A stretch of DNA of 64,000 bases from a virus (Duplodnaviria > Caudoviricetes). The position numbers and the translations under genes are program-made. Shown in pieces: positions 2,077 through 33,046 of this stretch. The notes beneath the pieces were generated by a model, which was given only the letters and a program-made list of their open reading frames with translations, did no database searches and was not told where the DNA came from. The stretch covers positions 32,001-96,000 of IMG/VR virus record IMGVR_UViG_3300011724_000025. One strand, given 5' to 3'. How positions within the stretch are numbered: position 1 is the stretch's first letter; each line of letters starts with the position of its first letter.

Positions 2077-2124
2077 ATACTGTATCCTTTCTCCATTAAA
2101 ACAGGAATTTTAATACCTTATTTT

Positions 2125-2214
2125 CTATTTACCTTTCCGCCTACCTGTTGAATATCCAAGTAGATAGCAACAGGCAAGACAAATAATAAATACTCCGATG
2201 TTTAGTACAATCAT
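2125..2214 (-). CDS. Small single-pass membrane peptide (29 aa)
   Basis: MIVLNIGVFIICLACCYLLGYSTGRRKGK, AGGTG RBS, last gene of the ABC operon. Confidence 0.5.
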   Translation of the reverse strand: MIVLNIGVFIICLACCYLLGYSTGRRKGK

Positions 2215-2222
2215 ATTTTCAC

Positions 2223-3827
2223 CTACTCAATATTTTTGAATGAAATATCTGTTCTTCTGTTCATAGCTCTATGTTCTTCAGTATCATTTTCTACAACTGG
2301 CTTGCTTGAACCATTTCCAATAACAATAATTCTATCAGCGGAGATACCGTTCAAGACGAAATACTGCTTAACTGTTTCTGCTCTTTGCTGAGACAACATC
2401 TTATTAGCCACATCATCTGGATCAGATGTTGGATTGGGATCTGTGTTACCGGCAATCTCAATAATTGTTCCATCAAGCACTTTTGAAATTTCAATAAAAT
2501 CATTTAACGTCTTTGTGGCTTCGGCAGAATCTGTAAACTTTGCGGTATTAATTATGAAGTTAACAGACGTAGATTTCTGTAATAATGCTACTGTATCTAA
2601 CACATCTTGCCTATTCTCTTCTGTCACAACAACTTTGGCATCTGTTGATGTGATCTCACTTGAATCGTATTTATCAGCTAGCTTATTGATATATGTGTTG
2701 TCAAAAACCGTATCAATAAGTTCTTTGTTTACTGTTTCTCCAATAGATTCCCAAACAATACACATATCTGAATAAATTGTTTTTGCAGTACCATTAAGAA
2801 GATTCAAGTTGTCTGCATATGTAGTGAGCTTTGCAGACTTGCAATTATCTAAGATATCCTGGTCAGAAGCAGTTGAAAACATAGGCATAACAGTTTTAAT
2901 AGTTGTGGTGTCTGTTTCGTATAAATCTGAGGCCTGTAATGCACCATCGATAAAAGCCGAAACTACATCTGGATATTTCTCTGCAAACTCCTTATTGAAC
3001 AAAATACCATCCATAATTAAACTTGAAGAACTAGACGTGCTAAATAAAATGTGGGCATCTGACATATTCTGTGCCTGAGTTAAATACGGTTCCCACGTAG
3101 CTGCAACATCAATTTGTCCTGCAAAAAATGCCTTAGCTGCTTCATCAGGTGTCTCAAATAATATCAAATTACTAATAATCTTACTCTTATCAGACTCTGT
3201 TAAATCTGACTGATTAACAAACCATACTACAAGAGAATGGGCTTCTGAAAACTGTGGTACTCCAATCTTTGCATTTACCAGATCTCCAACTGATTTGATT
3301 TCTGATTTTGCAATGATACCATCACCGCCATTTGAGAAATTAGTCACATAAGGCATAATTACTTTAATGCCAGCGTCAGTGAACTTTTTGGATAAAAATG
3401 CTGTTCTGTTGATGGTATAACCGGCAGCATCAATCTTTCCACTGACCATAGCATTACTTGATTGTGTTGCGTCATTAATAATACTGATATTTACATTGAT
3501 ACCAAGCTTATTGTAGATTGATCCATCTTTAGTAGAAAGCCCTCCGTTAGCATCAATAATGCTCTTCCAACCGATCCATTCATCAAGAGATAAGTTAATT
3601 GTCTTATTATCGTCTTTCTCTGTATTAATTACATTTCCATCACTATCTGCCGACTTGTTTTCAGCTTCATCTTTTACCTTTTCGGTTGTTGCCACATCTT
3701 TGTTTGTTGTAGTCTTAATCAAGCCACTGTTAATTCCGAAGAAAATTCCTCCTCCAATTAATGCCATTACCACTACAAGCAATAAAATCTTTGCTGTTCT
3801 CGTTAATCTAAATCGTCTTGAACTCAT
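2223..3827 (-). CDS. Membrane-anchored ABC substrate-binding protein (SsuA/NMT1-like) fused to an OmpA-like C-terminal domain
   Basis: N-terminal TM helix; SNGGDGIIA and DVAATWEPY motifs; C-terminal IEIAGNTD...LSQQRAETVK...NRRTDI OmpA/MotB peptidoglycan-binding signature. Confidence 0.85.
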   Translation of the reverse strand: MSSRRFRLTRTAKILLLVVVMALIGGGIFFGINSGLIKTTTNKDVATTEKVKDEAENKSADSDGNVINTEKDDNKTINLSLDEWIGWKSIIDANGGLSTKDGSIYNKLGINVNISIINDATQSSNAMVSGKIDAAGYTINRTAFLSKKFTDAGIKVIMPYVTNFSNGGDGIIAKSEIKSVGDLVNAKIGVPQFSEAHSLVVWFVNQSDLTESDKSKIISNLILFETPDEAAKAFFAGQIDVAATWEPYLTQAQNMSDAHILFSTSSSSSLIMDGILFNKEFAEKYPDVVSAFIDGALQASDLYETDTTTIKTVMPMFSTASDQDILDNCKSAKLTTYADNLNLLNGTAKTIYSDMCIVWESIGETVNKELIDTVFDNTYINKLADKYDSSEITSTDAKVVVTEENRQDVLDTVALLQKSTSVNFIINTAKFTDSAEATKTLNDFIEISKVLDGTIIEIAGNTDPNPTSDPDDVANKMLSQQRAETVKQYFVLNGISADRIIVIGNGSSKPVVENDTEEHRAMNRRTDISFKNIE

Positions 3828-3841
3828 ATATAAAAATCTCC

Positions 3842-4579
3842 TTATTTATTATATTTTTTCTTTAAACTCTCTAAGTAGTCATCACTATGTAGTTTCTTCG
3901 CTTCTTTCTCGGCTCTCTGTAGTTTCGTAGACATTTTACTATCGTGAACTACTTTTGATCCCTCAACAATAGCATCTAAATCCTTATTTTTATCCCTTAC
4001 AGAACTAAGTAGCTTGTCGGTTGCTGAAACGTTTTTAAGCTCGTCCATATCGTCATAGACTTCCTTCAATTGTTTCTTCACCTTCATATTCTCCACAACT
4101 TCCTTACTTTCCCGTTTTAATTTGCGAAGATTTCTTTCACACATTTCCTGTGCTTCCTTTGCTGTACTGGTAGCTACGTCATACGCCTTAATCAATTCTG
4201 TATATCTTTTGATGTCTGCCAGTATATCTTCTCTCTCCTCTGATTTCAACTGAGCCATATCAACTTTGCCAGATTTTACAAGAGCTTCACATTCAGACTC
4301 TACTCTCACAAGTTTATTCTTTAGACCCTCCATGTCTCTTTTAGCATTACTCAATTTCCCAGCGGCCACTTTCAACGCATTGTCAGCTTTATTGTATGCG
4401 TCCTGGGCTTCATCAATTTTTTCACCATAGATAGCCTCTGCTCCCTCTGGTGTAGTCGCCATGTCCTTAATAAATAATCTCGTAATTCCCTTAAATAACA
4501 CTCTTGCTTCCGGAAATAAAATGAGTATAAGGACAAACAATGCAACTGCAATAATGATAATTAGTTTTGTTAACTCCAT
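3842..4579 (-). CDS. PspA/IM30-like coiled-coil protein with N-terminal TM
   Basis: TM helix followed by a long coiled coil of PspA-like length and pattern (TPEGAEAIYGEKID...). Confidence 0.55.
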   Translation of the reverse strand: MELTKLIIIIAVALFVLILILFPEARVLFKGITRLFIKDMATTPEGAEAIYGEKIDEAQDAYNKADNALKVAAGKLSNAKRDMEGLKNKLVRVESECEALVKSGKVDMAQLKSEEREDILADIKRYTELIKAYDVATSTAKEAQEMCERNLRKLKRESKEVVENMKVKKQLKEVYDDMDELKNVSATDKLLSSVRDKNKDLDAIVEGSKVVHDSKMSTKLQRAEKEAKKLHSDDYLESLKKKYNK

Positions 4580-5112
4580 TACTCCGCTCCTCCAATGAAT
4601 TTAATTAATTCTGAGATTCTTGCAATTTCTGCATTAATGTTTGTTTCCGATACTTTAATCTCATTCTGTTTCTCCGATATCTTCTTTTCTAAATCAGCAA
4701 TTGCTTTCTTATGAGCTTCTATTTCAGTCTCATTATTACTGATTTCACCCTTACCATCTGAGATAATTTTGGACAAAACTCCACTCAAAACACCGACTCT
4801 ATTTTCTCCATCTAATCCCACATCAGTTGTTGTGAGTCCAAAACTACTCAAAATCGCAAGTACACTTGCTTTCTTTGTTTCTGTTACCATTTCTTTGGGA
4901 AGTGAATTAATTAACTCCTCAACCTTAAAAATTGATTTCTTTCTGTCAAACAATTCATTCTGCAAATAAATGTCCTCAATCAAGGTATCTGTATTTACTT
5001 CTTCAAGCTCAACATCTGCCTCCGTGGAAGATTCATATGTATCAATATCTGATTCACAATATACATCTTCCTGGGGAATCTCCTCCATAAACAGCTTTTT
5101 TAATAAACTCAT
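4579..5112 (-). CDS. Hypothetical coiled-coil protein
   Basis: 177 aa, begins MSLLKKLF, translationally coupled to the next gene. Confidence 0.7.
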   Translation of the reverse strand: MSLLKKLFMEEIPQEDVYCESDIDTYESSTEADVELEEVNTDTLIEDIYLQNELFDRKKSIFKVEELINSLPKEMVTETKKASVLAILSSFGLTTTDVGLDGENRVGVLSGVLSKIISDGKGEISNNETEIEAHKKAIADLEKKISEKQNEIKVSETNINAEIARISELIKFIGGAE

Positions 5113-5126
5113 TCAATATTCCTCCT

Positions 5127-6748: not shown

Positions 6749-6881
6749 ACAATTTGAATAGAACTCCTTTGTTATAATCTCTGTCGATTTATTTCACCTC
6801 CACTTTTATATTCTCCATTAAAATCGAAGTTTTATCCTTTTACTTTTAATCCGTATTAATATTGAAACTATTTATTATTCA

Positions 6882-7646
6882 ATGTATAATTACTTATATG
6901 TACAAGAAAGGAGATATGTTATGACTCGTATAAATCCAAATTTATTAAGTAGTGTCAATAATTATAGAATTTCAATAGAAACGGAAATTGTGAATTTTTA
7001 TAGTTTTTTGTATTCACAGAAAAATATTAACCTCTATCAAACTCCAAATTATAGACTGTTTTCATTGATTACAGAAAACATTAGAATGAACCTTGTGTAC
7101 CTTGAAGTATTGAATCCAGAAACTAATTTCCTCGGTTTAACTGGTTTATACAGAAATATAAGAAATTCCATCGAATCGTATTATGATCTTTTTAATTTAA
7201 CTTGTGATGAGTCATATTTTAGTGTATTAAAATATTATTCAAATTGTTTACAGCATAATGAACAAGATGTTAATATTATTAAGACCACTTACAAAAATAT
7301 TTTAACTACAAATAATGGTATAAATAAATTTATTAACACAAAAACCAAATCACGCATTGCTAAAGAAAAATTTAATCTAGATCCTAATATATTTGATACG
7401 TTAAAAGAAATTGGTATAGAAAGCAATAAATATGTCCATCCGGATATCTTCGTTAGAGAAGATTGCATTGAAAATACAATTAAGGAATTAGTATATATAG
7501 ACTGCTGTCTATTGAAATTTTCTTTCGATTTAATTATTCATTACGCACACAGAACAACAGGATATTACTCACCTTTAAACACTACTGATTTATTACATCA
7601 GCTGAATGTATTTACTATTCGAACTCAACCAATAATAATTAATTAA
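6882..7646 (+). CDS. AT-rich moron gene, possibly DUF5677/HEPN-like (likely start 6921)
   Basis: Opposite strand with its own TATAAT and AAAGGAG RBS; R-x3-E (RNSIE) and SNKYVH motifs reminiscent of DUF5677/HEPN. Confidence 0.5.
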   Translation: MYNYLYVQERRYVMTRINPNLLSSVNNYRISIETEIVNFYSFLYSQKNINLYQTPNYRLFSLITENIRMNLVYLEVLNPETNFLGLTGLYRNIRNSIESYYDLFNLTCDESYFSVLKYYSNCLQHNEQDVNIIKTTYKNILTTNNGINKFINTKTKSRIAKEKFNLDPNIFDTLKEIGIESNKYVHPDIFVREDCIENTIKELVYIDCCLLKFSFDLIIHYAHRTTGYYSPLNTTDLLHQLNVFTIRTQPIIIN

Positions 7647-7727
7647 TTCCATAATGCTTGAAAACTACGTGTTAATCAAAGTAATCAATTGAAAGACGTG
7701 TTTCAATTCTCTCCACCTACAGTAATT

Positions 7728-8123: not shown

Positions 8124-8163
8124 CTCCTTTCATAAGGACTTGAAAGTCGCATTTTCTTGGTAT

Positions 8164-9697: not shown

Positions 9698-9822
9698 AAA
9701 TATCCTTCATTTGGTCAATCGCATCTTGCTTAATATTTCCGCCTCTGTCAGTTACAGATGTAATTTTATAGAGTTTCCTCCCCATATTTCATCTTTCAAT
9801 CCATATGAAATTTACGTTTCAA

Positions 9823-10095: not shown

Positions 10096-10733
10096 TTCTA
10101 TTTTAAAGATTTGTTTTATGTTTTTATAAACTTTTCAATTAGTCCGAGTGCGCCATTCAACCAATCGCACACTTTAATTAATAAATTATATCCCGGTAAG
10201 TTTGGGATCAATTCGTGCCATAAAATTTCAGTTTTATAGTCAGATATACTTTAAGTTTTCCTGCTAAAATGTTATAATCTATAAAGAGTTTACAACCCTT
10301 ACAGGAGACATCATATGAGGAAAAGAGTAAAAAAACATAAACGAATTGCCTATTTAGTACTGATTTATCTACATTGCTTATTGTTTTAGTAAATACCCTT
10401 CTTGATAAGCCACTTCCAAGAGAGGTTATCCTTATTGTCACAAATATTTAGGTTTCAAGAATTCACATCGTTGTCCAAATTGCGAAAGAGAATTTCGTTA
10501 AATCCTAATTTTCATGTTCTTTTGGAAAGTGGTTTTTGCTTTTATAATGCCGTTTGCCAGATGCCGTTTTGCCGGGTTTGTCGTTGTGAATATTCGAGGT
10601 CAATTATTCATATTGGATACTCTTTTGTTTGAAATTAGCAATAAATATGATTTAATCAATGTGATCGTAATATTCCTCTGTTGCAGCTTGTTGAGGTTTG
10701 GAGCGAAAGCGAACTAAAAGTGAGGTAACAATC

Positions 10734-11075
10734 ATGAGTGACCAAAAGAGATCGCAGTTGCCGATACCAGCGCGGGTGACAGTTGGTATTTTTCTGATTT
10801 CTTTTCCCATTATAGGGGGAATTGCCCTTACCATTACAGGTCTATTAGATAGGTACGTACTGGTATACATTGGATATTTATTGAGTAGTTGGCATATATT
10901 CGGCCTTTGCACCAATCAGTCTATCTTCTTGAAGCGCTTTTTCGGGAAGGATCTTTCGTTTCAATATAGCGAGAACGAACTGTGGAGCAAACGCTTTGGC
11001 ATAGTAATGAATTTGCTTTTCCTTACCTTTGGCCTATTCCTGCTTGGCCTTGGGATTTATGATTTGATCCGATGA
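10734..11075 (+). CDS. Small membrane protein (inverted cassette)
   Basis: GAGGT RBS before ATG 10734; three hydrophobic segments. Confidence 0.55.
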   Translation: MSDQKRSQLPIPARVTVGIFLISFPIIGGIALTITGLLDRYVLVYIGYLLSSWHIFGLCTNQSIFLKRFFGKDLSFQYSENELWSKRFGIVMNLLFLTFGLFLLGLGIYDLIR

Positions 11076-11461
11076 TATATATAATATATATAAACATAGT
11101 TCACCTCCGATTCTAATGGTGAGCGAGGAGGTGCCACCCTTATTTTGAACGGTGCCTTAAAGTGGATTTTGATTTTTCATTGTAATATTCGTTTGACGAT
11201 TGCCAAAAAACCTTTATTTTATCAGAACTTCCGAGTTTGTCGTTACTATTCCCATACCTCTTTCTTCTGTAGACATTCTTTATAAAATTCAGGGAAATTA
11301 GCACTACCTAAATCGCTGTTCTCCGATATCTGGGCATTGCACAGCCATATGTCTAATAGGTATGGCTTCAAATTCAATCTTTATTTTTACTATTTTCTTT
11401 TCTGGCTCTACATTATTACCGTAATATCCCATTATTTTCTCCTCTCTCTTCAATAAAAGGT

Positions 11462-11884
11462 TCAATCTATGTACTTAACTTTTTCCTTCTCACAAAACGG
11501 AGATATGTCATAATCAATCAAATTTTTAACAATTTTATAAAGCCCAGTACCTGCTCCGCCATTATTAATATGAGTTAAGTCCATTGCGATTTCTCCATCT
11601 TTAGCTATTATATCGGCGAAGTAGAAATCGTCAGAAACCCTATAAACAGTATCGTGCCATATGGTTTCCGCATTTTGTATTGATGAACACTTTAATCCTC
11701 TTTTGTGGATATAATTTATAATTTCTATCATATTATATTTTAGTACTTTATTTAATAGCTCCGTTTCTTTATGTATTTCTTCTATCAATCCCTTTTTTAC
11801 TACTGCCAACTCGTACTCGCACATCTTTACTTTTTCTTCCTGTTTTAATTTAGATTTTTGTAGTTCTCTAATGATAGAATTCAT
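11462..11884 (-). CDS. Hypothetical protein
   Basis: 140-aa ORF with AGGAG RBS. Confidence 0.65.
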   Translation of the reverse strand: MNSIIRELQKSKLKQEEKVKMCEYELAVVKKGLIEEIHKETELLNKVLKYNMIEIINYIHKRGLKCSSIQNAETIWHDTVYRVSDDFYFADIIAKDGEIAMDLTHINNGGAGTGLYKIVKNLIDYDISPFCEKEKVKYID

Positions 11885-11937
11885 AATTCCTATAACTCTC
11901 CTTTTTTTATATTAATTTTCAAAATAAAATTCCGTTT

Positions 11938-12108
11938 TTATTTAGCAGCCATCAAAAGAATATCTCTAAAACTCAGATCATTGTTATTTGTTCTTTTACC
12001 ATCAATCCTTACATGACATTTTGTACATTCCGTATATCTGTTGTGTTGCCCATTTTCGAAATGGGTTCCAGTAATCATAATATGTCCGCATCTATCGCAA
12101 TTCTTCAT
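11938..12108 (-). CDS. Small Zn-ribbon protein
   Basis: CDRC...CTKC; AGGAGG RBS before ATG 12108. Confidence 0.65.
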   Translation of the reverse strand: MKNCDRCGHIMITGTHFENGQHNRYTECTKCHVRIDGKRTNNNDLSFRDILLMAAK

Positions 12109-15256: not shown

Positions 15257-15299
15257 TTTGCCACCGCCTTATTTATACTAATGAGTCAACAGTGTTAAA

Positions 15300-16776: not shown

Positions 16777-16836
16777 TCTATTGATGAAACAGTTCTATTA
16801 TTTTGTCTTTTTACGGCCGGCCCAACAAGGACTCAA

Positions 16837-18538: not shown

Positions 18539-19342
18539 TTATTTATCGTATATAAACGACATTCTCTGCTTTCCAGCCTCAATATTTTTCTTCTCTAAAC
18601 AGGCGTATCTTTCTGTGATACGTAAATCACTATGGCCAAGCTGACTTGATACTTCTAATAATGCCTGGCTTTTATCTGGGGCGTTCTTAATATACTGGTG
18701 AGCCATGGTTTTTCTTAGTCCGTGAGTTCCGATTTTTTGCTTAATCCCAGCTTCCTTTCTCGTATCCTCCACTATCTTCCACCATCTCTTTGAACCGAGA
18801 TAACTACTCTTTTGGCTTTTGAATATATAATCATCAAGTTCTTGTTTAGCATCGTAGCTATTGAGCCAGATAAGCCACTCAGATAGCGCAATTTCAAAAT
18901 CGTCGTTCCATGATAATTCAATGTGCTTTGCTTTGGTTATATTTCCATCTTCATCTCTCTTATTTGTTTTTTCTGGCACGTAATCAGCCGATGTTTTATA
19001 ATCCCAGTTCCTATCAAAGATATCTGACCACTTTAGTGAGCAAAAATCCCCCCCTCGTAAACCGACATTGATAGCGCAAACAAGCATTGTAAGGTTACGC
19101 CTTGCAATCATCTCCTTGGCCAAAGAGGTAGCGTTTTCAATTCTGTCTTGGAATATATTATATATTGCAATGATTTCATCACGTTCGTATAAACACTCCA
19201 TTTTTGTAGATTCTCTTGTACCTACCTTTTGCTTAGAACCATAACGCAGGTCTGGCGTTCCATCCGCTTTAATATGAGGATACTGGATCACGTCTGCACT
19301 CTTATTTTCCATTATACTACGGCTTTCCTGTGTAGCTGACAT
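18539..19342 (-). CDS. Short tyrosine recombinase
   Basis: GLRGGD (R), EKT (K), HGLRKT (HxxR), LGH (H), ERY (Y) all present; 267 aa. Confidence 0.9.
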   Translation of the reverse strand: MSATQESRSIMENKSADVIQYPHIKADGTPDLRYGSKQKVGTRESTKMECLYERDEIIAIYNIFQDRIENATSLAKEMIARRNLTMLVCAINVGLRGGDFCSLKWSDIFDRNWDYKTSADYVPEKTNKRDEDGNITKAKHIELSWNDDFEIALSEWLIWLNSYDAKQELDDYIFKSQKSSYLGSKRWWKIVEDTRKEAGIKQKIGTHGLRKTMAHQYIKNAPDKSQALLEVSSQLGHSDLRITERYACLEKKNIEAGKQRMSFIYDK

Positions 19343-19735: not shown

Positions 19736-20028
19736 CAAATCCCCCTCCCTTTGAAAACCTAGTTTCATTCATTCAATATTGATTTTAATGAATTTAGATT
19801 TAATCTTCCCAATTTTATACATCTTCTTCAGAACCCATATCTCTTTCATCAGCCTCATGTGTTCTAATCATTTCATTAAAATCTTCTTCAACTTCTTCGT
19901 ATGATGAACCTTCATTGGTTTCTGTTTCCCAGAAATCTTATTTCATCTTTTCTAACATTATAATTTTATCTTGTTCCTTTTCAAAACTATTCACTTGGTT
20001 TCCTCCTTAAATCTCAAATTTCAATCGC

Positions 20029-20874: not shown

Positions 20875-20883
20875 ATAAAATAA

Positions 20884-21408
20884 TCATTTCAAGCTTTCTA
20901 ACATGTTCTTTACTCTATCAATTTCTTCTTTACTATGTGGCGTTCCTCCACTATTAAATTCAACATACCACTGTAATACTTCTTTTTTAGTTTTGAGATT
21001 ATTTACATTAAACAACAAATCAACATCAATTGATAATTTATCTTCAAAGTCATGTAAATAATTTCCAAATACTTTTATTTCATTATTCATAAACTTTATA
21101 ACAGCAGTGAGTCTTTGTAGTCCATCAACACATACAAAATCATCATACTCGTATATTCCATCGCCTCGCCAACTTGGTTTATTAAAATAAATAACCCTAG
21201 CTGATTTTCCACCTCTTAGCAAATATTCAATATAGGCAATTTGTTGGTTCTCTGTCCAAACATGTCCTCTTTGGAAATCTGGATCTAATTGCAAGCCATA
21301 ATATTCATCTTCTTGCCATTCTTTTATTCGTTCACTAACATAATATAATGGCATATTCACCTGATAACTTCCTACACTGGTAAGTTGCGGAATATCTTTA
21401 AATTTCAT
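20884..21408 (-). CDS. DUF262 (ParB/Srx-fold) domain protein
   Basis: PDFQRGHVWT, VDGLQRL and NSGGTPH motifs. Confidence 0.8.
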   Translation of the reverse strand: MKFKDIPQLTSVGSYQVNMPLYYVSERIKEWQEDEYYGLQLDPDFQRGHVWTENQQIAYIEYLLRGGKSARVIYFNKPSWRGDGIYEYDDFVCVDGLQRLTAVIKFMNNEIKVFGNYLHDFEDKLSIDVDLLFNVNNLKTKKEVLQWYVEFNSGGTPHSKEEIDRVKNMLESLK

Positions 21409-21445
21409 AAATAGCTCTCCTTTACAAATAAAACAATCCTTTCAA

Positions 21446-21905: not shown

Positions 21906-22013
21906 GTTATTATCTCCTTCTTAATTGGATAATTTGCTCTTATCTCTTCTCTCGATTCATTTAATCGCCATTTCATGCCATCAAAATAGTTCTTTCATCA
22001 GTAAAATATCAGT

Positions 22014-22229: not shown

Positions 22230-22827
22230 AATTCATCTATCCTCCTATCTTCCGATACTACGGCAAATACTATTTTCTCAAATCATATAAACGGTTTTCT
22301 TTCTCCTGTTGGGTAATATCAAGAATCATACTCTCCATTTCTGCAACTTCTTCACTATTACTGCATTCAGAAAAACAGTTCATAATTATTTCTTGTATTT
22401 TAAGTTCACTTTTCATTGCGCTACTCCTTTAAATTGTGGTTCTATCGGTCATCTGTTTACTCTATATCCGAATTAACTAGACAATCCATCTGCAACGCCA
22501 TCTGCTTTTGATTCTCCATCATTATCTTAGCGTACACCTCCGCTACCTCCTGGCATGTAGTACAATCTGCATATACATCTTGAATTCTAGTTATTAAATC
22601 TTCCATCTTATTATTCTCCTTTTTAATCAAATCTTGTTTTCATTCTTCAAATAGACACTTGTGTCGCATTGCTAAATCACCATTGTCTAAAATTATAGTG
22701 TAATATTTTTGTATTTCAGCGCAAACTTCATATAATCTGCTTTTAGTTACCCCTACCACTGACAACTTTGCTCTAACTTGTTTCTTCATTTTATTAAACT
22801 CCTTCTTTAAATATATTAAATTCTTTA

Positions 22828-23739: not shown

Positions 23740-23976
23740 TTACTCATTTTCATATTTGTAATAACGTCCATACAGTTTATATTCTGGCTTATAAATACTT
23801 CCTACGTTTTCACTAACTAGCATAGAATCTTCATACCCAAGATTCTTCATAGTCCGAGAATGAATACTCTTTTCTTCCTCTGAATCATAATAATATTCCT
23901 CTATAATCGTTCTCTTTTTAAATACCATACTTTCTTCCTCTCTTTCAATATAATATTCTCCATTGAAAGCACACAT
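23740..23976 (-). CDS. Hypothetical protein (true start probably MVFKK)
   Basis: GAGG RBS inside the track ORF. Confidence 0.5.
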   Translation of the reverse strand: MCAFNGEYYIEREEESMVFKKRTIIEEYYYDSEEEKSIHSRTMKNLGYEDSMLVSENVGSIYKPEYKLYGRYYKYENE

Positions 23977-24174
23977 TCATGTACATTGCTCTATAAACTC
24001 ATCTGTACACATTGCACCTTCCCACCAGCACACAACCGCTGGCCTATCCTCTGATCCATTTAAATAGCCCCTTAACTGCCTTTCAAAGTATCCAAGCATA
24101 TAATCATCAAACACAGTCTTCAGCCTGTCAAAGTCCTTGCACTGTTCTAATTCTCTATATCCCATACAAAACAC
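23977..24174 (-). CDS. Hypothetical protein
   Basis: GGAGGT RBS. Confidence 0.5.
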   Translation of the reverse strand: MFCMGYRELEQCKDFDRLKTVFDDYMLGYFERQLRGYLNGSEDRPAVVCWWEGAMCTDEFIEQCT

Positions 24175-24663
24175 CTCCTATATTAAATCTACCGCTAATT
24201 ATGTGCGGTTAGTGACCTAAGCCAAATCAACCACTAATTCTCCGGTGGTAAGCAGCAATCACTTTTAGACTTCCGGGAATGCCTTGTTTACTTTTGCAGC
24301 ACGATCTATCCTTCCGGATCACCGACAAGGCTATGTATTAAGATATAAGGCAATGTAAAGCGAAAATCTCCGTGAAATTATCAAATGTAGATATGTAAAT
24401 ACCATTTGCATACATATCAATTTTCCCTTCCTTATTTTTCATGTAATGAAATTTTATATCGCTATTCATGTTTTAATCCTCCGGTCTGTGCAAATAAAAC
24501 TGCGCTTACAATTATCAGCAATGCTGCCAGCGTCCAGTTTCCGTCCTGGTCATTCAGTTTAAAGAACACAAAAATAGAAAGCACAGGCAAAATGCTTCCT
24601 AAAAGTTTGTAATACTTATTTAGTTGTGCTAATATCATGAAATCCTCCCTTAAAATGTTCTTT

Positions 24664-24855
24664 TCATCGTAATAATATATCTCTAATTTCTGTTGATCTG
24701 ACTTCAGGAATCATTCTAGCAAGCCAGTCACATCTTTCTGCTATATTTTCAATCTTTTCCGACTCTTCTAAAATGTTATCAAGCATGTCACGGGCAAACG
24801 CTGTTTCAAATGCCGTTGGAAATTCGCTAATAATATAATTCCATAGTTGGCTCAT
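24664..24855 (-). CDS. Hypothetical protein
   Basis: AAGGAGG RBS. Confidence 0.6.
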   Translation of the reverse strand: MSQLWNYIISEFPTAFETAFARDMLDNILEESEKIENIAERCDWLARMIPEVRSTEIRDILLR

Positions 24856-25167: not shown

Positions 25168-25200
25168 TTTAAATTCCTCCTTAAAACCTGTCTTTTATTC

Positions 25201-25872: not shown

Positions 25873-25913
25873 GACAATTCTCCTTTTATATTTTTATACT
25901 TGAATTCTATTTT

Positions 25914-26138
25914 TCATCTTGAATATTTATCTATCATGGCACCCATTACCTGACGAGCTTCCTTGTAATTTAATAATACTTGTGGTTTCCCTTTAGCTTC
26001 AAATTCATACTGTAGAGGTAATCCATTCTTTGTATCTGGGTTGTAACACGTACCATAAAATATATAAGATTCTGGTTTATCATGTAACCAGATTGTAAAT
26101 TCGCAGCCTATATATTTTTCAAACCATTTATTTGACAT
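25914..26138 (-). CDS. Hypothetical protein
   Basis: GAGGATGGTG RBS. Confidence 0.55.
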   Translation of the reverse strand: MSNKWFEKYIGCEFTIWLHDKPESYIFYGTCYNPDTKNGLPLQYEFEAKGKPQVLLNYKEARQVMGAMIDKYSR

Positions 26139-26234
26139 CTTATCACCATCCTCTTATATACATAGATAAATTTACAATTTTATTTGCTTAATATTTCTAT
26201 AAAACTTCATTTTAAATCTAAAGATTCGTATAAA

Positions 26235-26265
26235 AAACCTTCCAATCACTATCATTGGAAGGTTT
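26235..26265 (-). terminator. Intrinsic terminator after def
   Basis: AAACCTTCCAAT...ATTGGAAGGTTT hairpin with T-tract on the minus strand. Confidence 0.7.
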
Positions 26266-26324
26266 AACTACATTTAAAGACCCTATGTTAAAAGGCAGTT
26301 ACATGCTACAATTCAATTCGAGAA

Positions 26325-26783
26325 CTATTTGATGTCTAAATACTCGATTGCTTTATCTGTAAATAATACTCCATCTAAATGATCAGTTTCATGACATAGA
26401 CACTTTGCAAGTTCATCAAAAGCCTCAATTGTAATGGCTTCTCCATTTTCATTAAGTGCCTTAACCAATACTCTTTTGGGTCTCCGCACTCTACCCCATA
26501 TACCAGGACAACTTAAGCATCCCTCAATAACCAGTTGTTCTCCTTCAGATTCAACAATTTGGGGATTAACTAACTTTAATAAGCCTTGACCCATATCAAT
26601 TACAACTAAACGGCGTAATATTCCGACTTGACATGCGGCTAATCCACCTCCATTTTCTGTGCTATACATTGTTTCTGCCATATCGCCAAGAATTTCTCTG
26701 ATACGATCATCAACCATATCAACAGGTTTGCTTACTTTACGTAAAACATGATCATCAAACAGTCGAATTTCTCTTAGTGCCAT
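26325..26783 (-). CDS. def: Peptide deformylase
   Basis: GGGLAACQVG, EGCLS and HETDHLDG motifs; AGGAGG RBS before ATG 26783. Confidence 0.95.
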   Translation of the reverse strand: MALREIRLFDDHVLRKVSKPVDMVDDRIREILGDMAETMYSTENGGGLAACQVGILRRLVVIDMGQGLLKLVNPQIVESEGEQLVIEGCLSCPGIWGRVRRPKRVLVKALNENGEAITIEAFDELAKCLCHETDHLDGVLFTDKAIEYLDIK

Positions 26784-27018
26784 CTGTAAACCTCCTACTG
26801 ATATCCGCACGGGATTTTCGTTCACTTTCTTCAAATAAGAATACACTTTCAATCGGCACATTGAATACTTGTGCTATATCATACGCAAGCCATATTGAAG
26901 GCTCATTTTTTTCTGTTTCAATTGCATTTATAGCCTGTCTTGAAGTTCCGACTTTTTCACCCAATTGCTCTTGAGTCATACCCAATGCCTCTCGTAATTG
27001 ACGAACCTTATTTTTCAT
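26755..27018 (-). CDS. XRE-family HTH regulator co-transcribed with def
   Basis: MTQEQLGEKVGTSRQAINAIE..PS motif; upstream TTGACA promoter flanked by a TAACCTTACAT repeat. Confidence 0.9.
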   Translation of the reverse strand: MKNKVRQLREALGMTQEQLGEKVGTSRQAINAIETEKNEPSIWLAYDIAQVFNVPIESVFLFEESERKSRADISRRFTDGTKRNSTV

Positions 27019-27415
27019 TAAGTTTATTCCACCTTCTTATATGTAATGTTAACCTTACATTCAGATTTTATCACAATAAAATAGCCCTGTCAACTTAACC
27101 TTACATATTTTGAAAAATATAATTTGATCTATAAATCTAACTCCACCTCGTTTGGATTGTCTTCACAGTCCGACGGCAAATAACTAACTCCACCAACATA
27201 ATTTTTACTGTTCATTTTCGCCTAGTGAAACCGTATCAGTTACAAGCCCCTTTGCCTTCGCAGCATTCACGATAAGGCTTATTAAACCATTACTGATAAT
27301 TTTCAGTTCTTTATTTGTAAACTTCTCCATTACAATCTCCTTCCTGATTTTGAGCATAATAAAAGCAACCGGGTATATATTCTCCGATTGCTCACCATTA
27401 AACGTGCATTTTATC

Positions 27416-27673
27416 TTAATATCCAACAGGATAACTTTTCCTTCCCCCTTGAAATAAGTATCCATACTTCCGTTGATCCTCTAACCATTCCTCTTTTGTT
27501 GCCATCTTGTCAATCATAAATTCAACATCTCTCCCATTTGGCAAGTCATCAAAGAATCTTACAGCAAGTTCCAACGCTTCTTTTTCGTCATACCCCTTTT
27601 TCTGTATTAACTTTCCTGCTTTTAAAACACTATTATAGGTTTTTCGTTTCATACTCCCTCCATTCCTTACCAA
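27416..27673 (-). CDS. Hypothetical protein (start probably MKRKTY)
   Basis: GGAGGGAG RBS. Confidence 0.55.
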   Translation of the reverse strand: MVRNGGSMKRKTYNSVLKAGKLIQKKGYDEKEALELAVRFFDDLPNGRDVEFMIDKMATKEEWLEDQRKYGYLFQGGRKSYPVGY

Positions 27674-27687
27674 AAGAAAGGCACAAT

Positions 27688-27951
27688 TTATTCTATAATT
27701 TCAAAGTTGCTTTCTTTAATTTTATTGCTACATACCATTATTCTGCCTTTTTTATTAACCAACCAATCAGTAGGTGATATTACCGTTTTTTCTTCAGGAA
27801 ACCTTAATCCATACACATGTATATTGGGTATAATATGTCTTATACTTAAATTCCGATATTTTCTAATGATATTTATTATCTTAGAATAATTATCACCAGT
27901 ATATTGCATCATTTCACATTCGTAATCTGCAATAATATTTCTTGCTTTCAC
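27688..27951 (-). CDS. Hypothetical protein
   Basis: GAGG RBS, GTG start. Confidence 0.55.
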   Translation of the reverse strand: MKARNIIADYECEMMQYTGDNYSKIINIIRKYRNLSIRHIIPNIHVYGLRFPEEKTVISPTDWLVNKKGRIMVCSNKIKESNFEIIE

Positions 27952-27995
27952 AACAGTCGACCTCTTCTTTCTCTTGAAATGTGAATTGCCACTGG

Positions 27996-28289
27996 TTATT
28001 TAAACACTGGAAAACTATCTTCATTTTCCATTGCAAAGTAATTATGGGCCTCATAATCATCAATTTCTATTACAGAGCACACACATTCATATCCAAGTTC
28101 TTGCATATCCTCCTTACAAAACTCTTCAGCTTCTTTAATAGAAGGCTCTCTAATTCCAATAATGCAAATAGAATAAGTATCGCATGGCGTATCAGGGTAT
28201 TTATCGAAATGTTCCTGATTGGCCTTTTCTTCATGACCAAATTCAATTTCAAAATATCTCGTTTCCATATTTCGCACCTCCATTTCCAA
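27996..28289 (-). CDS. Hypothetical acidic protein (start probably METRY)
   Basis: GGAGGTG RBS. Confidence 0.6.
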   Translation of the reverse strand: MEMEVRNMETRYFEIEFGHEEKANQEHFDKYPDTPCDTYSICIIGIREPSIKEAEEFCKEDMQELGYECVCSVIEIDDYEAHNYFAMENEDSFPVFK

Positions 28290-28303
28290 AGGAAACTTAC
28301 TTT

Positions 28304-29950
28304 TTATGCTGACTTATCTTCCAACAAGTTCATACTATTGTTTCCATCGAATAAATAATACTTAGTATCACTCATGACCTTTGAATACTCCTTCTCACCC
28401 TCAAATTCGTTTACTACAGCTTTTTCTTCTGCCGTCATATCTTTATATTGCTTTTTGCCATAAGAAGGTGGAAGCCAGCCTTTTTTCTGTGATCCGAATA
28501 TGTTGAACTTCTTCAGTAGCTCTGGATTAGTAAATGTAATATGACAGGTTCCTTTCTTATAAAAGGTAATATTAAAATATTTTAAAACGATGTTCTTCGT
28601 CTCTCCGTACTCTTCTGCAAATTTTAAGGTTTCCTCTAAATCAATTGCATCCGTCAAGCCTCCGTCAAGATAGTTAAAACATTTCTCAATGTCTTGTAGT
28701 TTCCCTTTAACCTTATAATCTGTAGGGTAATATCTATTCCAAAAAGAATCATACCCAGCTAATGGTATAATTACTTTTTCATTTATAAACCAACTTTTAT
28801 TGGTCTTCCACCCATTATAATAATGGATATTGCTTGATGTGTCTTTGTCCCAATAATGTTTATGGCTCAATTCATCAAATAAGGATATAATAGTTTCTTC
28901 TACTCCAGAAACTACTTTCTTTTGCATCTCAATTTTTAATTCGTAAATATTATATAAAGAAAAATCATAATCTTTTAAGTTCTCAAGTCTATTATAAAAA
29001 TCCTGTCTTAAGTTCTCGGTAAGCTGTCCGATAAATTTTTCATTATGAAAGAGTGCGTTCCAATATTTTCCACGCACTTCTCTTATGAACCCATTCACAG
29101 ATAATTTATTACTGTATTTATCTTTATTTGTAGATAAATCTAAGCTCAAAATGCAGCCACCCTTCTGAACTGTTTCGCCTGTCTCTTCATCTTTTCCGAA
29201 AGAAGTCATAATCAAAGGATACATGGCATTATATTCCTTGATTAATTTAATTCCCGCTTCTACCTCTAAATTGTATTGACTTACGATAGACTTAAACAAA
29301 TCGTTTTCTACTAGATATGCGCTTTCAGTCTGCCCATATTCCTGCTGTTCTTTTGCTTTTTTGAGCCCATCAAAGATAAATGATTGTCTTTCAACTTCCG
29401 GAAGTTGTACCTTTATTAATGCAATTTCAACATCTGTCTTTCGTTCTGCGTCCGCAAAAGCATTTCTTATATATTCAATGTCTGCATGATATTCTTCTAG
29501 CAGCCTAACAAGCGTTATTCTGTCATTGCTGCACTGATTTCTAAGCGTTTCGGCATTCAGCAAACAAACAATGGCACCGCCGTTTCTCTTCTGCATTTCT
29601 AAAGCCTTTAATAAGTGTTTACAGCCATTAGAAAAAGGAGGATTCATAATAATAAGGTCGTACTCTTTCATTGTGTCGTATGTCAAGAAATCATTGTGAA
29701 CTAGCCGATATCCTTTACCTTTAAGTATGTGTCGCAAATTTTCATCTTGTTCTATGCAATCAATATCAAAAGAAAACTTTGACCAACGATCAGACATGCG
29801 GCCCTCTTTCTCCTTAATTTTTTCTATTATGTCACCCTTCCCGGCCTCTGGCTCTAAAATACTTTTGATCCTGTTAAAGTCCAAAGAAAAGAGCATCTTT
29901 TCAATAAGATGCCCTGGCGTTGGGTAAAAATCTGCATTTGATGTAAACAT
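28304..29950 (-). CDS. N6-adenine DNA methyltransferase with DUF4942-like C-terminal domain
   Basis: FYPTP, LEPEAGKG, MNPPF and C-terminal YF...FYKKGTCHI motifs. Confidence 0.85.
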   Translation of the reverse strand: MFTSNADFYPTPGHLIEKMLFSLDFNRIKSILEPEAGKGDIIEKIKEKEGRMSDRWSKFSFDIDCIEQDENLRHILKGKGYRLVHNDFLTYDTMKEYDLIIMNPPFSNGCKHLLKALEMQKRNGGAIVCLLNAETLRNQCSNDRITLVRLLEEYHADIEYIRNAFADAERKTDVEIALIKVQLPEVERQSFIFDGLKKAKEQQEYGQTESAYLVENDLFKSIVSQYNLEVEAGIKLIKEYNAMYPLIMTSFGKDEETGETVQKGGCILSLDLSTNKDKYSNKLSVNGFIREVRGKYWNALFHNEKFIGQLTENLRQDFYNRLENLKDYDFSLYNIYELKIEMQKKVVSGVEETIISLFDELSHKHYWDKDTSSNIHYYNGWKTNKSWFINEKVIIPLAGYDSFWNRYYPTDYKVKGKLQDIEKCFNYLDGGLTDAIDLEETLKFAEEYGETKNIVLKYFNITFYKKGTCHITFTNPELLKKFNIFGSQKKGWLPPSYGKKQYKDMTAEEKAVVNEFEGEKEYSKVMSDTKYYLFDGNNSMNLLEDKSA

Positions 29951-29962
29951 TGTTTTTCTCTC

Positions 29963-31216
29963 CTATACAATTAGTTTTTCAGTTGGATCATATTTAAAAA
30001 TGAAACCGTCCTTTAAACTGCTATGATATCCTTGTATTTTTGCAAGTTCTCGTTTGACCTCTGCAAATTCCTGTTTTGATAATTCATTTTTTACTTTTAC
30101 AATATAAATAACTTTTTTGTTATCAAACGGGCTTTTATCCTCCATGATATCATACTCAATAATTGGTTTAACCTTTTCTTTAGGCTCTTCTGGTGGAGTT
30201 TCTGTTCTTATATATTCTTCTGCTTCTGGTTTACTCGATAAATCAGAGTTTAATAATTCTATTGGATTTGATTTGAATATAAAGCCATGTTTGAAGCGAG
30301 AATAGTAACCGCCGATTGACTTCATGTACTGATTTACTTTTATATACTCTTCACGGTCTAACTTTTCTACAACTTTTACAACCCATATTTTAGAATTGTC
30401 TCTTGTGTCGGTGTCTTCCGCAATATCGTAAGTACAGTTATTATCAATGCTTTCTATTTCCTTACAAGCTTCTGTTTTTGTCTGACTAGATGCATTATTG
30501 ATTCTTGCCGTTTTTTCCACTACTTTGAAATCACTTGATACTTTACATCCAAAATAATAGAAATCAACGTGAAAATAATCGGTCATAGCGTCGCAATCGT
30601 TGTAATTGTAGCTATTTACTTCTCTATTTACATCCTCTATGACCGCCGATGTTCCATCATTATACACTTTGTAAAAATCAGATTTGTCCCAAGCTTCAAG
30701 AATGGCTGTTTTTAATTCATGGTCAAACCATGAATCTTTATTGAATAAATGGTTTGCTCTAAGTTGCCTATGAATATTGTTAATATCATCTTTTGTCAAC
30801 TCGTCATAATTCTTATATAATCCGTGAGGTGCTTCTTTTAATTCGATATGAATTTCTGAACACATAGAAGCGTGTGAATATCTTATTGAAAATTTATAAG
30901 TCGGATATATTTCTTTTACATAAGTTCTAATTAATGAGGCAACTTCTTTTGTAGAACGGCTCCAATCGTGTTTTGAACCTTTCCAACCATACGCGGTATA
31001 AAATTCGCTTCTAGTGCTGTCTGCTGTTTCTTTAGTGGGTTCCGGTGCTGTTACGTTGTATTTGTACTTCCAGATAGGAAAAAGCTGATCATATTCGCCG
31101 TTAATCGCTTTCATGACTTCTGGATCGCCGCCAGCGTCTGGGTGATTCTTTCTTGCCAATGCCTTAAACTGATTCTTTAAATCCTCAAATGATTTTATAT
31201 CTTTAAAATGCTTCAT
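29963..31216 (-). CDS. J-domain (DnaJ-like) plus LPD29-like polyvalent protein
   Basis: LARKNHPDAGGD J-domain; YPTYKFSIR...YNYNDCDAMTDYF; duplicated C-terminal domain (GYYSRFKHGFIFK / GYHSSLKDGFIFK). Confidence 0.7.
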   Translation of the reverse strand: MKHFKDIKSFEDLKNQFKALARKNHPDAGGDPEVMKAINGEYDQLFPIWKYKYNVTAPEPTKETADSTRSEFYTAYGWKGSKHDWSRSTKEVASLIRTYVKEIYPTYKFSIRYSHASMCSEIHIELKEAPHGLYKNYDELTKDDINNIHRQLRANHLFNKDSWFDHELKTAILEAWDKSDFYKVYNDGTSAVIEDVNREVNSYNYNDCDAMTDYFHVDFYYFGCKVSSDFKVVEKTARINNASSQTKTEACKEIESIDNNCTYDIAEDTDTRDNSKIWVVKVVEKLDREEYIKVNQYMKSIGGYYSRFKHGFIFKSNPIELLNSDLSSKPEAEEYIRTETPPEEPKEKVKPIIEYDIMEDKSPFDNKKVIYIVKVKNELSKQEFAEVKRELAKIQGYHSSLKDGFIFKYDPTEKLIV

Positions 31217-31310
31217 AGTTCCACCTTTTACCTTTCATTATGTAAGTTCATTTATTCCCACTATAAAAGCCACCGGAACGCTGTCCGATGACTTCTGACT
31301 AGAAATAATA

Positions 31311-31529
31311 TTATTTATCCCATACAATAGAATCTATCTCGCACATGTCGTTAGCATAACCCACATATTTATTGCCAGGATAACCAACGCCCTTTCCCTC
31401 AAATATCGGGAAACGTTTAAAATCCGCAGACGCTCCGCATATGAACATATTTCTTTTAGCTAAATACTCAACAAGATTTTTATGATTTTCATTACATGTT
31501 ATAATCTTTGTTCTTAGCTCCTCTCTCAT
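31311..31529 (-). CDS. Hypothetical protein
   Basis: GGAGGT RBS. Confidence 0.6.
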   Translation of the reverse strand: MREELRTKIITCNENHKNLVEYLAKRNMFICGASADFKRFPIFEGKGVGYPGNKYVGYANDMCEIDSIVWDK

Positions 31530-31557
31530 TTCTCAACCTCCAAATAAAAGAATAGTT

Positions 31558-31842
31558 TCAAAGACTTATCATATATTGATCGTCATTCTGTTTTACTGTA
31601 AAGCTAAAGCCTTGAAAATAATCTGCAAGTGATTTATCATCAATAGTCACTTTCCCGTCAAAGCGCAAACAATCAATTAAAAACCCCATGTTCTTATAAG
31701 TATCGTAAGACAATTTTCTTTTTTCTAACTCTGAATCGGAATCTATTTTTTGATAATCATGCAACATATTATTAAATATCTCCGCTGTTTTGTCTGTATG
31801 TTTAAACATTTCTCTCATTTTTATCCACTTTCTACCTCGCAT
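31558..31842 (-). CDS. Hypothetical protein
   Basis: ORF bounded by palindromic sites. Confidence 0.55.
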   Translation of the reverse strand: MRGRKWIKMREMFKHTDKTAEIFNNMLHDYQKIDSDSELEKRKLSYDTYKNMGFLIDCLRFDGKVTIDDKSLADYFQGFSFTVKQNDDQYMISL

Positions 31843-31872
31843 TTAACCAAGGATTTATTTGAAATAAGAATT

Positions 31873-32139
31873 TTATTCAGCCATCGCATTTATATATTCG
31901 CTATCATTCCATGTAAAAATACAATTTTTGTATACATCTTCCATATCAATTTTCATAGAATCGAAATTCACATACCGAATGCATTTTTTAATTCCCACAG
32001 ACTTTATATACTCCATAGTACCGCCCTGAACACTGTATAATTCTTTATTATGAATGTGTCCAAAACAATCGCGTTCCACCTTTAAACTCGCATAGTGTGG
32101 TATTCCATTCAATGTACCAATATTAATTAATTTTTCCAT
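31873..32139 (-). CDS. Hypothetical protein
   Basis: GGGAGG RBS before MEKLIN at 32139. Confidence 0.55.
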   Translation of the reverse strand: MEKLINIGTLNGIPHYASLKVERDCFGHIHNKELYSVQGGTMEYIKSVGIKKCIRYVNFDSMKIDMEDVYKNCIFTWNDSEYINAMAE

Positions 32140-32400
32140 TATAGATCCTCCCTCTATATGCTTACGGACTTGTGACCGCTTGATTTTTGTCAAGTTCATT
32201 AAAGCAGCCATGATAGGCTGCTCCACTCTGCTGATTATTAAGATGCTCTTTGTTGCGTTTGTAACCACTTCTGAAAATTTTTATTTTCTGCCATGTAATT
32301 TTCCATCCATACTACATGCATCTGACCCTCCGTTAATATGGAGTTACCAAACAAATAATAATTCATCTTGCCACCTTACTTTCTAAATCAAATTCGGTTT

Positions 32401-32622
32401 TTATCTGCTTTCTTTAAATGTTCCACAACTGAAGGAATTTAACTTGTTGACTGCATCATCTTCAGTTTCATATATAGAAAGAAAATATACCTTACAATTA
32501 TCGTACAGTGAATACAAAGTTAATGTAAATTCATCCACTTTTTGCGTAGCGCCTTTGTATGGGAAGCCATAACCCTTTTTAATCGTTGCCATATTTTCAT
32601 AATCATCAAAAAATTTTTTCAT
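32401..32622 (-). CDS. Hypothetical protein
   Basis: GGAGG RBS. Confidence 0.6.
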   Translation of the reverse strand: MKKFFDDYENMATIKKGYGFPYKGATQKVDEFTLTLYSLYDNCKVYFLSIYETEDDAVNKLNSFSCGTFKESR

Positions 32623-32650
32623 GTGTCCTACCTCCCATCAAATAATCGTT

Positions 32651-32842
32651 TTATCTTTCTATAAAAACACACAATTTTTTATTTGCTTCCATATATTTTT
32701 TTAAATCTTTCATTGTTCCGCTTCCATTACTAAAAGCGCCCGTAATTCTTTCTGTATCCCATTTTACACAATAACCATCTTCTATTGCTTTTTCGATTGA
32801 TCCAAACTTTTTTATATATTCTTTATAAACTTCAAAAATCAT
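32651..32842 (-). CDS. Hypothetical protein
   Basis: GGAGGGTG RBS. Confidence 0.6.
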   Translation of the reverse strand: MIFEVYKEYIKKFGSIEKAIEDGYCVKWDTERITGAFSNGSGTMKDLKKYMEANKKLCVFIER

Positions 32843-33046
32843 GTCTCACCCTCCGTTATGGGTTTTGTACCCATATCAATGTATCGTTAAAATATATTTT
32901 TCCGTCCGTAGTTTGCGTTGTTTTGTTCAATACTCTTTCAAAATTGCTAGAAAAGGAAATTTTCTTTCCATTGTCAAATAGATAGTAGGTGTTTCTTTTC
33001 ATAACTATCATTATTAATTCCTCCCTATGAAATGGATATTTCCTTG

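Follow-up and report, generated by a model that had tools for sequence, protein, structure and literature searches.

Short palindromic sites with position-specific centres are preferred mosaic borders in a large SPbeta-like prophage and its relatives

A 64,000-nucleotide stretch of viral DNA (the window), comprising bases 32001-96000 of the single 126,662-bp provirus record IMGVR_UViG_3300011724_000025 (34% G+C), was analyzed with respect to a short imperfect palindrome, TRAAA-N6-TTTYA, found at many of its gene junctions. The source is a large prophage, SPbeta-like, carried by a gut/soil relative of Clostridium. We are highly confident that these sites are real, that their six-base centres are conserved by map position in related phages, and that the sites are preferred borders of mosaicism. 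Each genome carries approximately 30-50 of them; every site has an individual centre, which recurs at the equivalent map position in relatives. Our best reading is that they are the crossover points of an in-register gene-exchange system common to SPbeta-like phages; that a tyrosine recombinase acts on them by matching of centres is a proposition we hold to be evenly balanced.

Site geometry and placement

The loose pattern TNAAA-N6-TTTNA was found 30 times in the window, against 12.1 +/- 3.4 in shuffled sequence (maximum 20), and 23 of these 30 matches lay within 2.1-32.7 kb. When the strict form was counted over the whole 126,662-bp record, 28 copies were observed at a spacer of 6 bases versus 2-10 at other spacers (lengths 2-11 compared), and 25 of the 28 were intergenic versus 0-3 for the other spacers. 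Both the constant six-base spacer and the preference for gene boundaries over coding DNA, as claimed in an original prediction made from the sequence of the window, were therefore confirmed, and all ten coordinates which it gave as examples hold the 16-mers assigned to them. Chance or base composition as the source of the motif is ruled out by the spacer-length and intergenic controls. A relaxed definition (one mismatch plus a free inner base) had no spacer specificity and was therefore not relied on.

The palindrome reaches one A/T further on each side, and its innermost arm base allows an A/T swap. The anatomy is that of two inverted 5-6-bp arms (W-TRAA-W) flanking a 6-bp centre, which bears out the core architecture of tyrosine-recombinase type that had been proposed. 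On the coding strand, arm positions 2 and 15 were paired as G-C in 5 cases, A-T in 6, G-T in 8 and A-C in 5, as expected under independence. Such independence argues for a pair of equivalent half-sites rather than a hairpin, and gives no indication of a folded structure like attC, in agreement with the original prediction.

Sites were located in genome 9-64 kb, which holds the early and accessory arrays, with the structural genes almost free of them. On the coding strand a site usually follows a stop codon and is itself followed by a ribosome-binding site 0-10 bases downstream, as predicted, but the stop codon forms part of an arm in some cases only. A validated site was present at approximately 17 of the 34 junctions in 19.4-33.3 kb, which is about half of them and not most, as had been supposed. 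Slots between sites contain one to several genes, so that the units described as single-gene are such in part. The reported absence of sites from the ABC operon, the regulatory core and the head genes was essentially right, except for degenerate, conserved sites at 11454 and 16785 and a chance-like in-gene match at 14861. Two regulatory identities for the motif were rejected: sigma-70 promoters showed no enrichment (67 promoter-like sequences found versus 65.8 expected), and the control region of the XRE repressor itself (XRE-MazF) is without a site.

Conservation of centres by map position

The genomes compared were this phage (G000), a 124-kb IMG/VR contig (G001) and a prophage of Lacrimispora sp. 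HJ-01 (HJ1). G001 is collinear with this phage and highly mosaic, with 28 strict sites at spacer 6 versus 1-6 at other spacers; most early genes are without an orthologue between the two phages, and the 267-aa tyrosine recombinase described below is 88% identical. At least 23 sites with an identical 6-bp centre were found in the same order in G000 and G001. Around these shared centres the 45 bases on either side were mostly unalignable and the inter-site distances differed; the ABC-operon slot between sites 2097 and 6819, for example, spans 4.7 kb here versus 1.4 and 2.4 kb in the relatives. Across all three genomes approximately 30 centres occur in one common order, usually with both flanks unrelated, and the orientation of the centres is conserved between relatives. 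Two further loci (L123 and L124) share a local series of centres.

To quantify this conservation, 67 orthologous site pairs were chosen solely by collinearity and no more than 2 mismatches in 16. Mismatch rates in these pairs were 2.5% for the centres, 5.8% for the other arm bases, 39% and 48% for the R/Y arm positions 2 and 15, and 50-70% for the flanks. Tolerance of unmatched overlaps, as in Tn916, had been invoked in the original prediction; the opposite was seen, the centre being the best conserved part of the site. Inner-base arm variants were common and were kept between orthologous sites. As a control, identical centres numbered 23 and 20 against the two relatives and 0-1 against unrelated motif-bearing phages. 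An unbiased list of exact islands of at least 14 nt outside homologous blocks consisted mostly of these sites.

Megablast of 19.4-33.3 kb against the phage collection gave no match. A scan of viral contigs for one site returned 92 loci, nearly all of them chance, with neighbouring centres shared by G001 only; the same scan exposed other motif-bearing phages. A metagenome scan with site 16785 and its conserved flank returned three loci only.

Sites as borders of exchanged blocks

Four public runs, X2, X3 and X4 among them, were compared as assembled contigs. In a 76.8-kb contig of run X2 there were zero differences over 26172-31873 and three differences over 14000-19782, while the DNA adjoining these two blocks was replaced by other sequence. 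Both ends of the first block fell within sites, at the sixth base of site 26167 and the fourteenth of site 31860, and the second stopped 15 bases past site 19752. The first, a 5.7-kb segment running from the peptide deformylase to the LPD29 genes, is base-identical in what is a 2013 isolate assembly, and such identity amid differing neighbours points to a very recent exchange. Other joints were found at 21987, 22626, 23964, 24663/24668, 25172-25200, 26167, 28304, 31862, 32654 and 33018-33042, all in or beside sites. A joint was present at 12 of the 17 junctions with a validated site versus 4 of the 17 without one. Similarly, blocks at least 95% identical to HJ1 ended in sites 32638, 31860, 26167 and 11454, and in divergent comparisons 43 of 316 block ends fell inside sites versus 3.8 expected at random. 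The prediction that breakpoints between relatives coincide with sites thus stood for recent block ends, which lie in or beside them; breaks were also seen at site-less junctions, and mosaicism is therefore not confined to sites.

Flank alleles were reassorted across single sites at 19752, 11925 and 16785. At 19752, two left and three right alleles occurred in four combinations (A-X, A-Z, B-X and B-Y) in five genomes. At 16785, nine genomes had the same high-coordinate flank and seven unrelated alleles on the low-coordinate side. Among the three genomes compared, 74 of 75 matches were collinear and none was inverted. A one-gene insertion at 24664-24855 had a full site on one side only. The recombination system originally predicted was accordingly upheld with respect to the joints, where conserved islands stand between unrelated flanks and recent identical blocks end, but not with respect to integron-like mobile cassettes, given the collinearity of the matches.

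Lacrimispora sp. HJ-01 (NZ_CP173277.1, loci L019-L026) carries three related prophages in one host, between which no large near-identical blocks were found. Two of the three have a frameshifted copy of the 267-aa recombinase gene and few strict sites (8 and 4, versus 24 in the intact prophage).

SPbeta, phi3T and other motif-bearing phages

The same fixed geometry was found in G001, MT835469.1, G003, G006, G007, SPbeta and phi3T. Strict sites in SPbeta numbered 36 at spacer 6 versus 0-10 at other spacers, and phi3T had 30 sites of the all-A/T form versus 2 for the control. SPbeta and phi3T have 24 centres in common, in order; homology stops at the site in 10 of these and neither flank is homologous in 5. 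Shared sites without flanking homology include those at SPbeta 69424, 88400, 116415, 117535 and 118470.

Hybrids of SPbeta and phi3Ts have been described by Dragos et al. (bioRxiv 10.1101/2020.05.06.055103), with 16 junctions, most of the tabulated ones lying in 1.4-6.9 kb of homology. Their junction 7, the sole short-homology junction, has 30 bp of homology and was placed at phi3T 62446 next to yopA. This junction coincides with a site shared by the two phages (phi3T 62423-62438, SPbeta 69424-69439), the flanks of which are otherwise unrelated. Although obtained with a different aim, this is experimental evidence that crossover can take place at such a site.

Two side observations were made in these phages. 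The centres at SPbeta 99498 and phi3T 89340 are reverse-complementary, reflecting either an inverted site or coincidence. In G007, a complete 122-kb phage with terminal repeats (loci L126-L132), many sites come directly after a -35/-10-like pair and the first arm overlaps the -10 box (e.g. 12076, 42074 and 64607), which is not so in the window.

Candidate enzymes

Intact tyrosine recombinases are encoded in the phage, as predicted, and two are candidates to act on the sites. In the 267-aa protein, residues R96, K125/K139, H207, R210, H237 and Y246 are kept in all 35 homologues, and only two helices precede the catalytic domain. It is nearest XerH/XerA by both sequence and fold, with IntI (2a3v) as a lower-ranked fold match. 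Its gene lies mid-array and not at the head of an array. Besides the Lacrimispora group, the protein occurs in MT835469.1, a distant gut phage whose sites share the arms but not the centres. Homologues of the second candidate, a 336-aa YomM-like protein, were present in all seven site-bearing phages examined; a sequence search of this protein against solved structures found nothing. With respect to other recombination functions, a Sak4-like protein is encoded, and no RecT, ERF or serine recombinase was found in the record.

Gene content and site inventory

Kinship with SPbeta is indicated by gene content, namely the YomM-like recombinase and the Sak4-like protein (SPbeta counterpart YorG). Long arrays of small genes run leftwards on the minus strand from approximately 34 kb and include an ABC transporter set at 2.2-6.5 kb. 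The regulatory core holds a sigma-DUF262 fusion, a MazF-like toxin, an XRE repressor and an HSDR_N protein, and further array genes encode the 267-aa recombinase (homologues of which were found in Lacrimispora genomes), a peptide deformylase, a DUF4942 methyltransferase and an LPD29 protein. Further right, on the plus strand, are anti-repressors, the second tyrosine recombinase, an amidase and head genes. Coordinates of the sites and of the three recombination genes are collected in Table 1.

Two plus-strand segments lie within the minus-strand arrays. The gene at 6921-7646 stands between sites 6819 and 7690, as the original prediction had noted for an inverted site-bounded unit, and the content of this slot is unrelated in G001 and HJ1. 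The other (10435-11285) lies between site 10221 and sites 11454-11925.

A second type of island was observed at window 31251-31273, upstream of the LPD29 gene, with a G-T-G-G-C core, a T run and ATAGTG. It is 23 nt exact in run X4, with the DNA replaced on both sides, and is a joint in run X3; a similar sequence occurs approximately 60 bases upstream of the start of the 267-aa recombinase gene, near 19395. Islands of this type may be promoter or leader elements.

In relatives (loci L120-L124), the slots adjoining the recombinase hold candidate counter-defence and moron genes, encoding an Apyc1-like metallo-beta-lactamase fold protein, a nitroreductase, acetyltransferases, an ADP-ribosyltransferase-toxin-like protein and Bro-N/ANT. 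Loci L120-L122 may be prophage remnants, because host-like metabolic genes follow within 5 kb.

Table 1. Junction sites and recombination genes of the phage, in window coordinates unless stated; strand is given for the recombinase genes.
Feature	Position	Strand	Form	Centre or island in common with	Remarks
Site	2097..2112		strict	G001, HJ1 (centre, in order)	lower end of ABC-operon slot
Site	6819..6834		strict	G001, HJ1 (centre)	upper end of ABC-operon slot
Site	7690..7705		strict	G001, HJ1 (centre)	both flanks unrelated
Site	8141..8156		one arm mismatch	G001 (centre)	
Site	9806..9821		strict	no partner found in relatives	
Site	10221..10236		strict	no identical-centre partner found	
Site	11454..11469		degenerate	G001, L123, L124 (centre)	ends 97%-identical block with HJ1
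Site	11925..11940		strict		high-coordinate flank kept in 4 genomes; low-coordinate side three unrelated alleles
Site	16785..16800		degenerate arm		beside XRE-gene terminator; break at site
Site	19752..19767		strict		flank alleles recombined across; ends 99.95% block of X2
Site	20008..20023		inner arm base T		
Site	20876..20891		strict	G001, HJ1, L123, L124 (centre)	all flanks differ
Site	21429..21444		strict	G001, L123 (centre)	
Site	21982..21997		one arm mismatch	HJ1 (within 24-nt island)	joint in X3
Site	22627..22642		one arm mismatch	G001, L124 (centre)	joint in X3
Site	23964..23979		inner arm base A/T swapped		joint in X2
Site	24651..24666		strict		border of one-gene insertion 24664-24855; joints in X3 and X4
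Site	25182..25197		strict	X2 (29-nt island)	joint in X3
Site	25901..25916		inner base swapped	G001, HJ1, L124 (centre)	all flanks differ
Site	26167..26182				low-coordinate end of X2 zero-difference 5.7-kb block; joint in X4; ends 97% HJ1 block
Site	27398..27413		one arm mismatch	G001, HJ1 (centre)	
Site	28291..28306		one arm mismatch	G001, HJ1 (centre)	joint in X3
Site	31545..31560		strict		
Site	31860..31875		strict		high-coordinate end of X2 5.7-kb block; joint in X3; ends 95.5% HJ1 block
Site	32388..32403		one arm mismatch	G001, HJ1 (centre)	
Site	32638..32653		one arm mismatch	G001 (18-nt island)	starts 95.5% HJ1 block; joint in X2
Site	33028..33043		one arm mismatch	X2, X4 (21-25-nt islands)	
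267-aa tyrosine recombinase	18539..19342	-			short N-terminus, full catalytic set; candidate enzyme 1
336-aa YomM-like tyrosine recombinase	50781..51791	+			candidate enzyme 2
Sak4-like (AAA_24) gene	genome 31204-32331 (upper end = window 1-331)				like SPbeta YorG

Discussion

Tyrosine recombinases need identity of the central region between partners to finish exchange, a requirement on which heterospecific lox and FRT sites are built. An array with shared arms and differing centres would recombine only like with like, and this matches the in-register exchange seen. We infer that a recombinase cuts at the sites and that centre identity restricts their pairing. The common arms would be bound by a tyrosine recombinase, and strand exchange would be completed solely between two sites of the same centre. 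Between a co-infecting phage and a resident prophage, crossover would be confined to equivalent sites, and blocks of non-homologous accessory genes would be swapped without deletion, inversion or loss of gene order. In its full form, which we put forward tentatively and somewhat short of even likelihood, the proposal is that heterospecific sites occur naturally throughout the genomes of SPbeta-like phages and work as an address system, through which a phage tyrosine recombinase would join only the equivalent sites of co-resident genomes. This would amount to site-directed sex among non-homologous accessory genes, largely anti-defence genes, and to a previously undescribed mobile-genetic organisation; no description of these sites was found in the searchable literature.

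Several observations weigh against this interpretation. Neither candidate enzyme is tied to the sites. A homologue of the 267-aa recombinase was undetectable in G003, G006, G007 and SPbeta, and with respect to the YomM-like family, SPbeta YomM has K for the second Arg and the G007 homologue is without an alignable Tyr. Arms of 5-6 bp are short for a recombinase that lacks a large core-binding domain, and the 16-bp islands could serve as short homology for the Sak4-like annealing protein encoded by the phage. Block ends per junction were only mildly in excess at sites when divergent genomes were compared (0.65-1.24 with a site versus 0.53-0.61 without), and a test of whether an arm travels with its own flank was without clear-cut outcome. 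Junction 7 of the SPbeta-phi3Ts hybrids is a single event, with coordinates taken from a phi3T variant.

The same joints could have arisen by other chemistry, a possibility which we consider improbable though of real weight. The palindromes would then be kept for a symmetric dimer, acting as a roadblock or insulator between cistrons, and crossovers would fall there because islands of 16-18 bp are the only homology available for annealing by the Sak4-like protein or host RecA. As a Sak4-like protein of the AAA_24 type is encoded here, and YorG of SPbeta is annotated as Sak4-like, recombination through short homology at the islands is still a serious contender. It is favoured by the 15 of 16 hybrid junctions of Dragos et al. 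that lie in ordinary homology, by the breakpoints at site-less junctions, by the indistinct result of the arm-with-flank test, and by the many G007 sites that abut promoter-like -10 boxes, the typical position of an operator. Mere binding, however, leaves unexplained why an uncontacted centre should match the invariant arm bases in conservation when positions 2 and 15 are randomised; furthermore, neither RecT nor ERF was found and no binder is known. Sixteen base pairs is also far below the homology usually needed for efficient recombination. A purely regulatory role, in which a phage or host dimer silences or punctuates the long early operons at stoperator- or operator-like sites without any part in recombination, appears unlikely to us. 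The position between stop codon and ribosome-binding site inside long promoter-poor operons would suit it, the palindromic 5-6-5 geometry fits a helix-turn-helix dimer, and there are precedents in the mycobacteriophage stoperators (PMC9283540) and in SPBRE, which is bound by the recombinase-fold repressor MrpR (PMC10516654). SPBRE nevertheless differs in sequence from the sites, the XRE-MazF control region is site-free, and regulation does not account for position-specific centres conserved amid unrelated flanks or for identical blocks that end in or beside sites. A plain operator or roadblock is disfavoured because its arms would be preserved while its centre diverged, the reverse of what was observed.

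Integron-like capture of single promoterless genes as mobile cassettes shuffled between positions is highly improbable on the present data. Units of site, ribosome-binding site, open reading frame and site are often found, tyrosine recombinases are present, and single-gene gains and losses abut sites; against this, no homologous block was found at another position or orientation among the three genomes, the centres follow map position and not the gene, the inserted gene at 24664-24855 is bordered by a full site at just one end, and there is no hairpin covariation. We give as little credence to a signal at the RNA level, such as a short A-U hairpin or a processing site in a polycistronic transcript. 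The constant position just upstream of the ribosome-binding site is in its favour, but the bases at positions 2 and 15 of the coding strand vary independently, pair-breaking inner-base variants are common and conserved between orthologous sites, a stem of five A-U pairs would be barely stable, and position-specific loops are given no reason.

Among known systems, the closest core is that of Xer/dif. In difH, the site of XerH, the conserved palindrome consists of TGAAAA and TTTTCA around six central bases (PMC3325230); the arm cores here are one base closer together. As with Xer/dif there are inverted arms around a 6-bp centre, within the 6-8 bp of such cores and with enrichment specific to spacer 6, and a tyrosine recombinase with a full catalytic set is encoded as candidate cognate enzyme. 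In contrast, dif is a single chromosomal dimer-resolution site with arms of at least 11 bp and FtsK control (PMC3325230, PMC5241119), whereas the phage has dozens of sites that differ in their centres. The pdif modules of Acinetobacter plasmids (XerC/XerD; PMC13141974, PMC6449649, PMC9947245) likewise have many core sites per replicon bounding differing accessory modules. The sites described here differ in being carried by a phage replicon with 5-6-bp arms and phage-encoded candidate enzymes, in lacking alternating orientation, and in having position-specific centres conserved in order; modules are exchanged in register only and are not found in new contexts.

The promoter-early stem-loop (PeSL) cassettes of T4-type phages (PMC2839356, PMC4122927) are similar in that small dispensable genes of plastic regions are flanked by short, conserved elements between genes, which mark insertion, deletion and replacement differences between related phages. 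PeSLs are, however, mutually similar units, each a sigma-70-type early promoter followed by a terminator stem-loop, which recombine by homology and can form mini-circles, while the present sites are without promoter enrichment or stem-loop, have each a distinct centre, and lie inside operons before ribosome-binding sites. Laboratory recombinase-mediated cassette exchange with heterospecific lox or FRT sites shares the common arms, differing spacers and in-register swap between two sites; it uses engineered Cre or Flp and two sites, where the phage would have a natural genome-wide array of approximately 30-50. Integrons also combine a tyrosine recombinase with arrays of small, mostly promoterless genes split by imperfect palindromes. 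Unlike integrons, whose attC sites are long imperfect palindromes that fold as single strands, one to each cassette, the phage has no folded attC (its sites are 16-18 bp and their inner-base variants break pairing), no attI/Pc-like head and no cassette movement, and its sites go with positions rather than cassettes.

Further examples of a temperate phage with dozens of copies of a short site at junctions or promoters are the cluster A mycobacteriophage stoperators (PMC9283540, PMC6550527) and the SPBRE/MrpR system (PMC10516654); the SPbeta binder of SPBRE, MrpR/SroF, has a recombinase fold. A stoperator is oriented with transcription and bound by the immunity repressor. The junction position fits, but conserved centres are not expected of stoperators; stoperators and SPBRE are also asymmetric and without a free spacer, whereas the sites here have symmetric arms. 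As a monomer, SroF recognises an asymmetric box of 24-26 bp, and the chromatin pull-down of MrpR gave only ten peaks, all at SPBRE. The element common to these ten MrpR-bound SPbeta promoters was an asymmetric sequence and not the junction palindrome, and two SPbeta palindromes within 200 bp of aimR and yosX were separate from the SPBRE copy there. The MrpR/SPBRE analogy was rejected, because SPBRE differs in sequence and the 267-aa protein showed no relationship to YopR or YopP in BLAST.

Phage genomes are mosaics jointed at gene borders, and the role of special linker sequences in guiding the joining has been a matter of debate ever since the modular theory was put forward. Random illegitimate joins, afterwards sorted by selection, are the prevailing view. 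The present data indicate that in a widespread phage group, with the laboratory models SPbeta and phi3T among its members, short sites mark the joints; their arms are common, and their position-specific centres surpass every neighbouring gene in conservation. Even without a recombinase, these conserved centres still need explaining. If one acts on them, the sites would constitute a dedicated machine which swaps accessory and counter-defence genes in register between phages without homology, and a natural set of orthogonal recombination sites would be available for engineering. Such a system, if true, would explain how large temperate phages keep their gene order while their cargo turns over.

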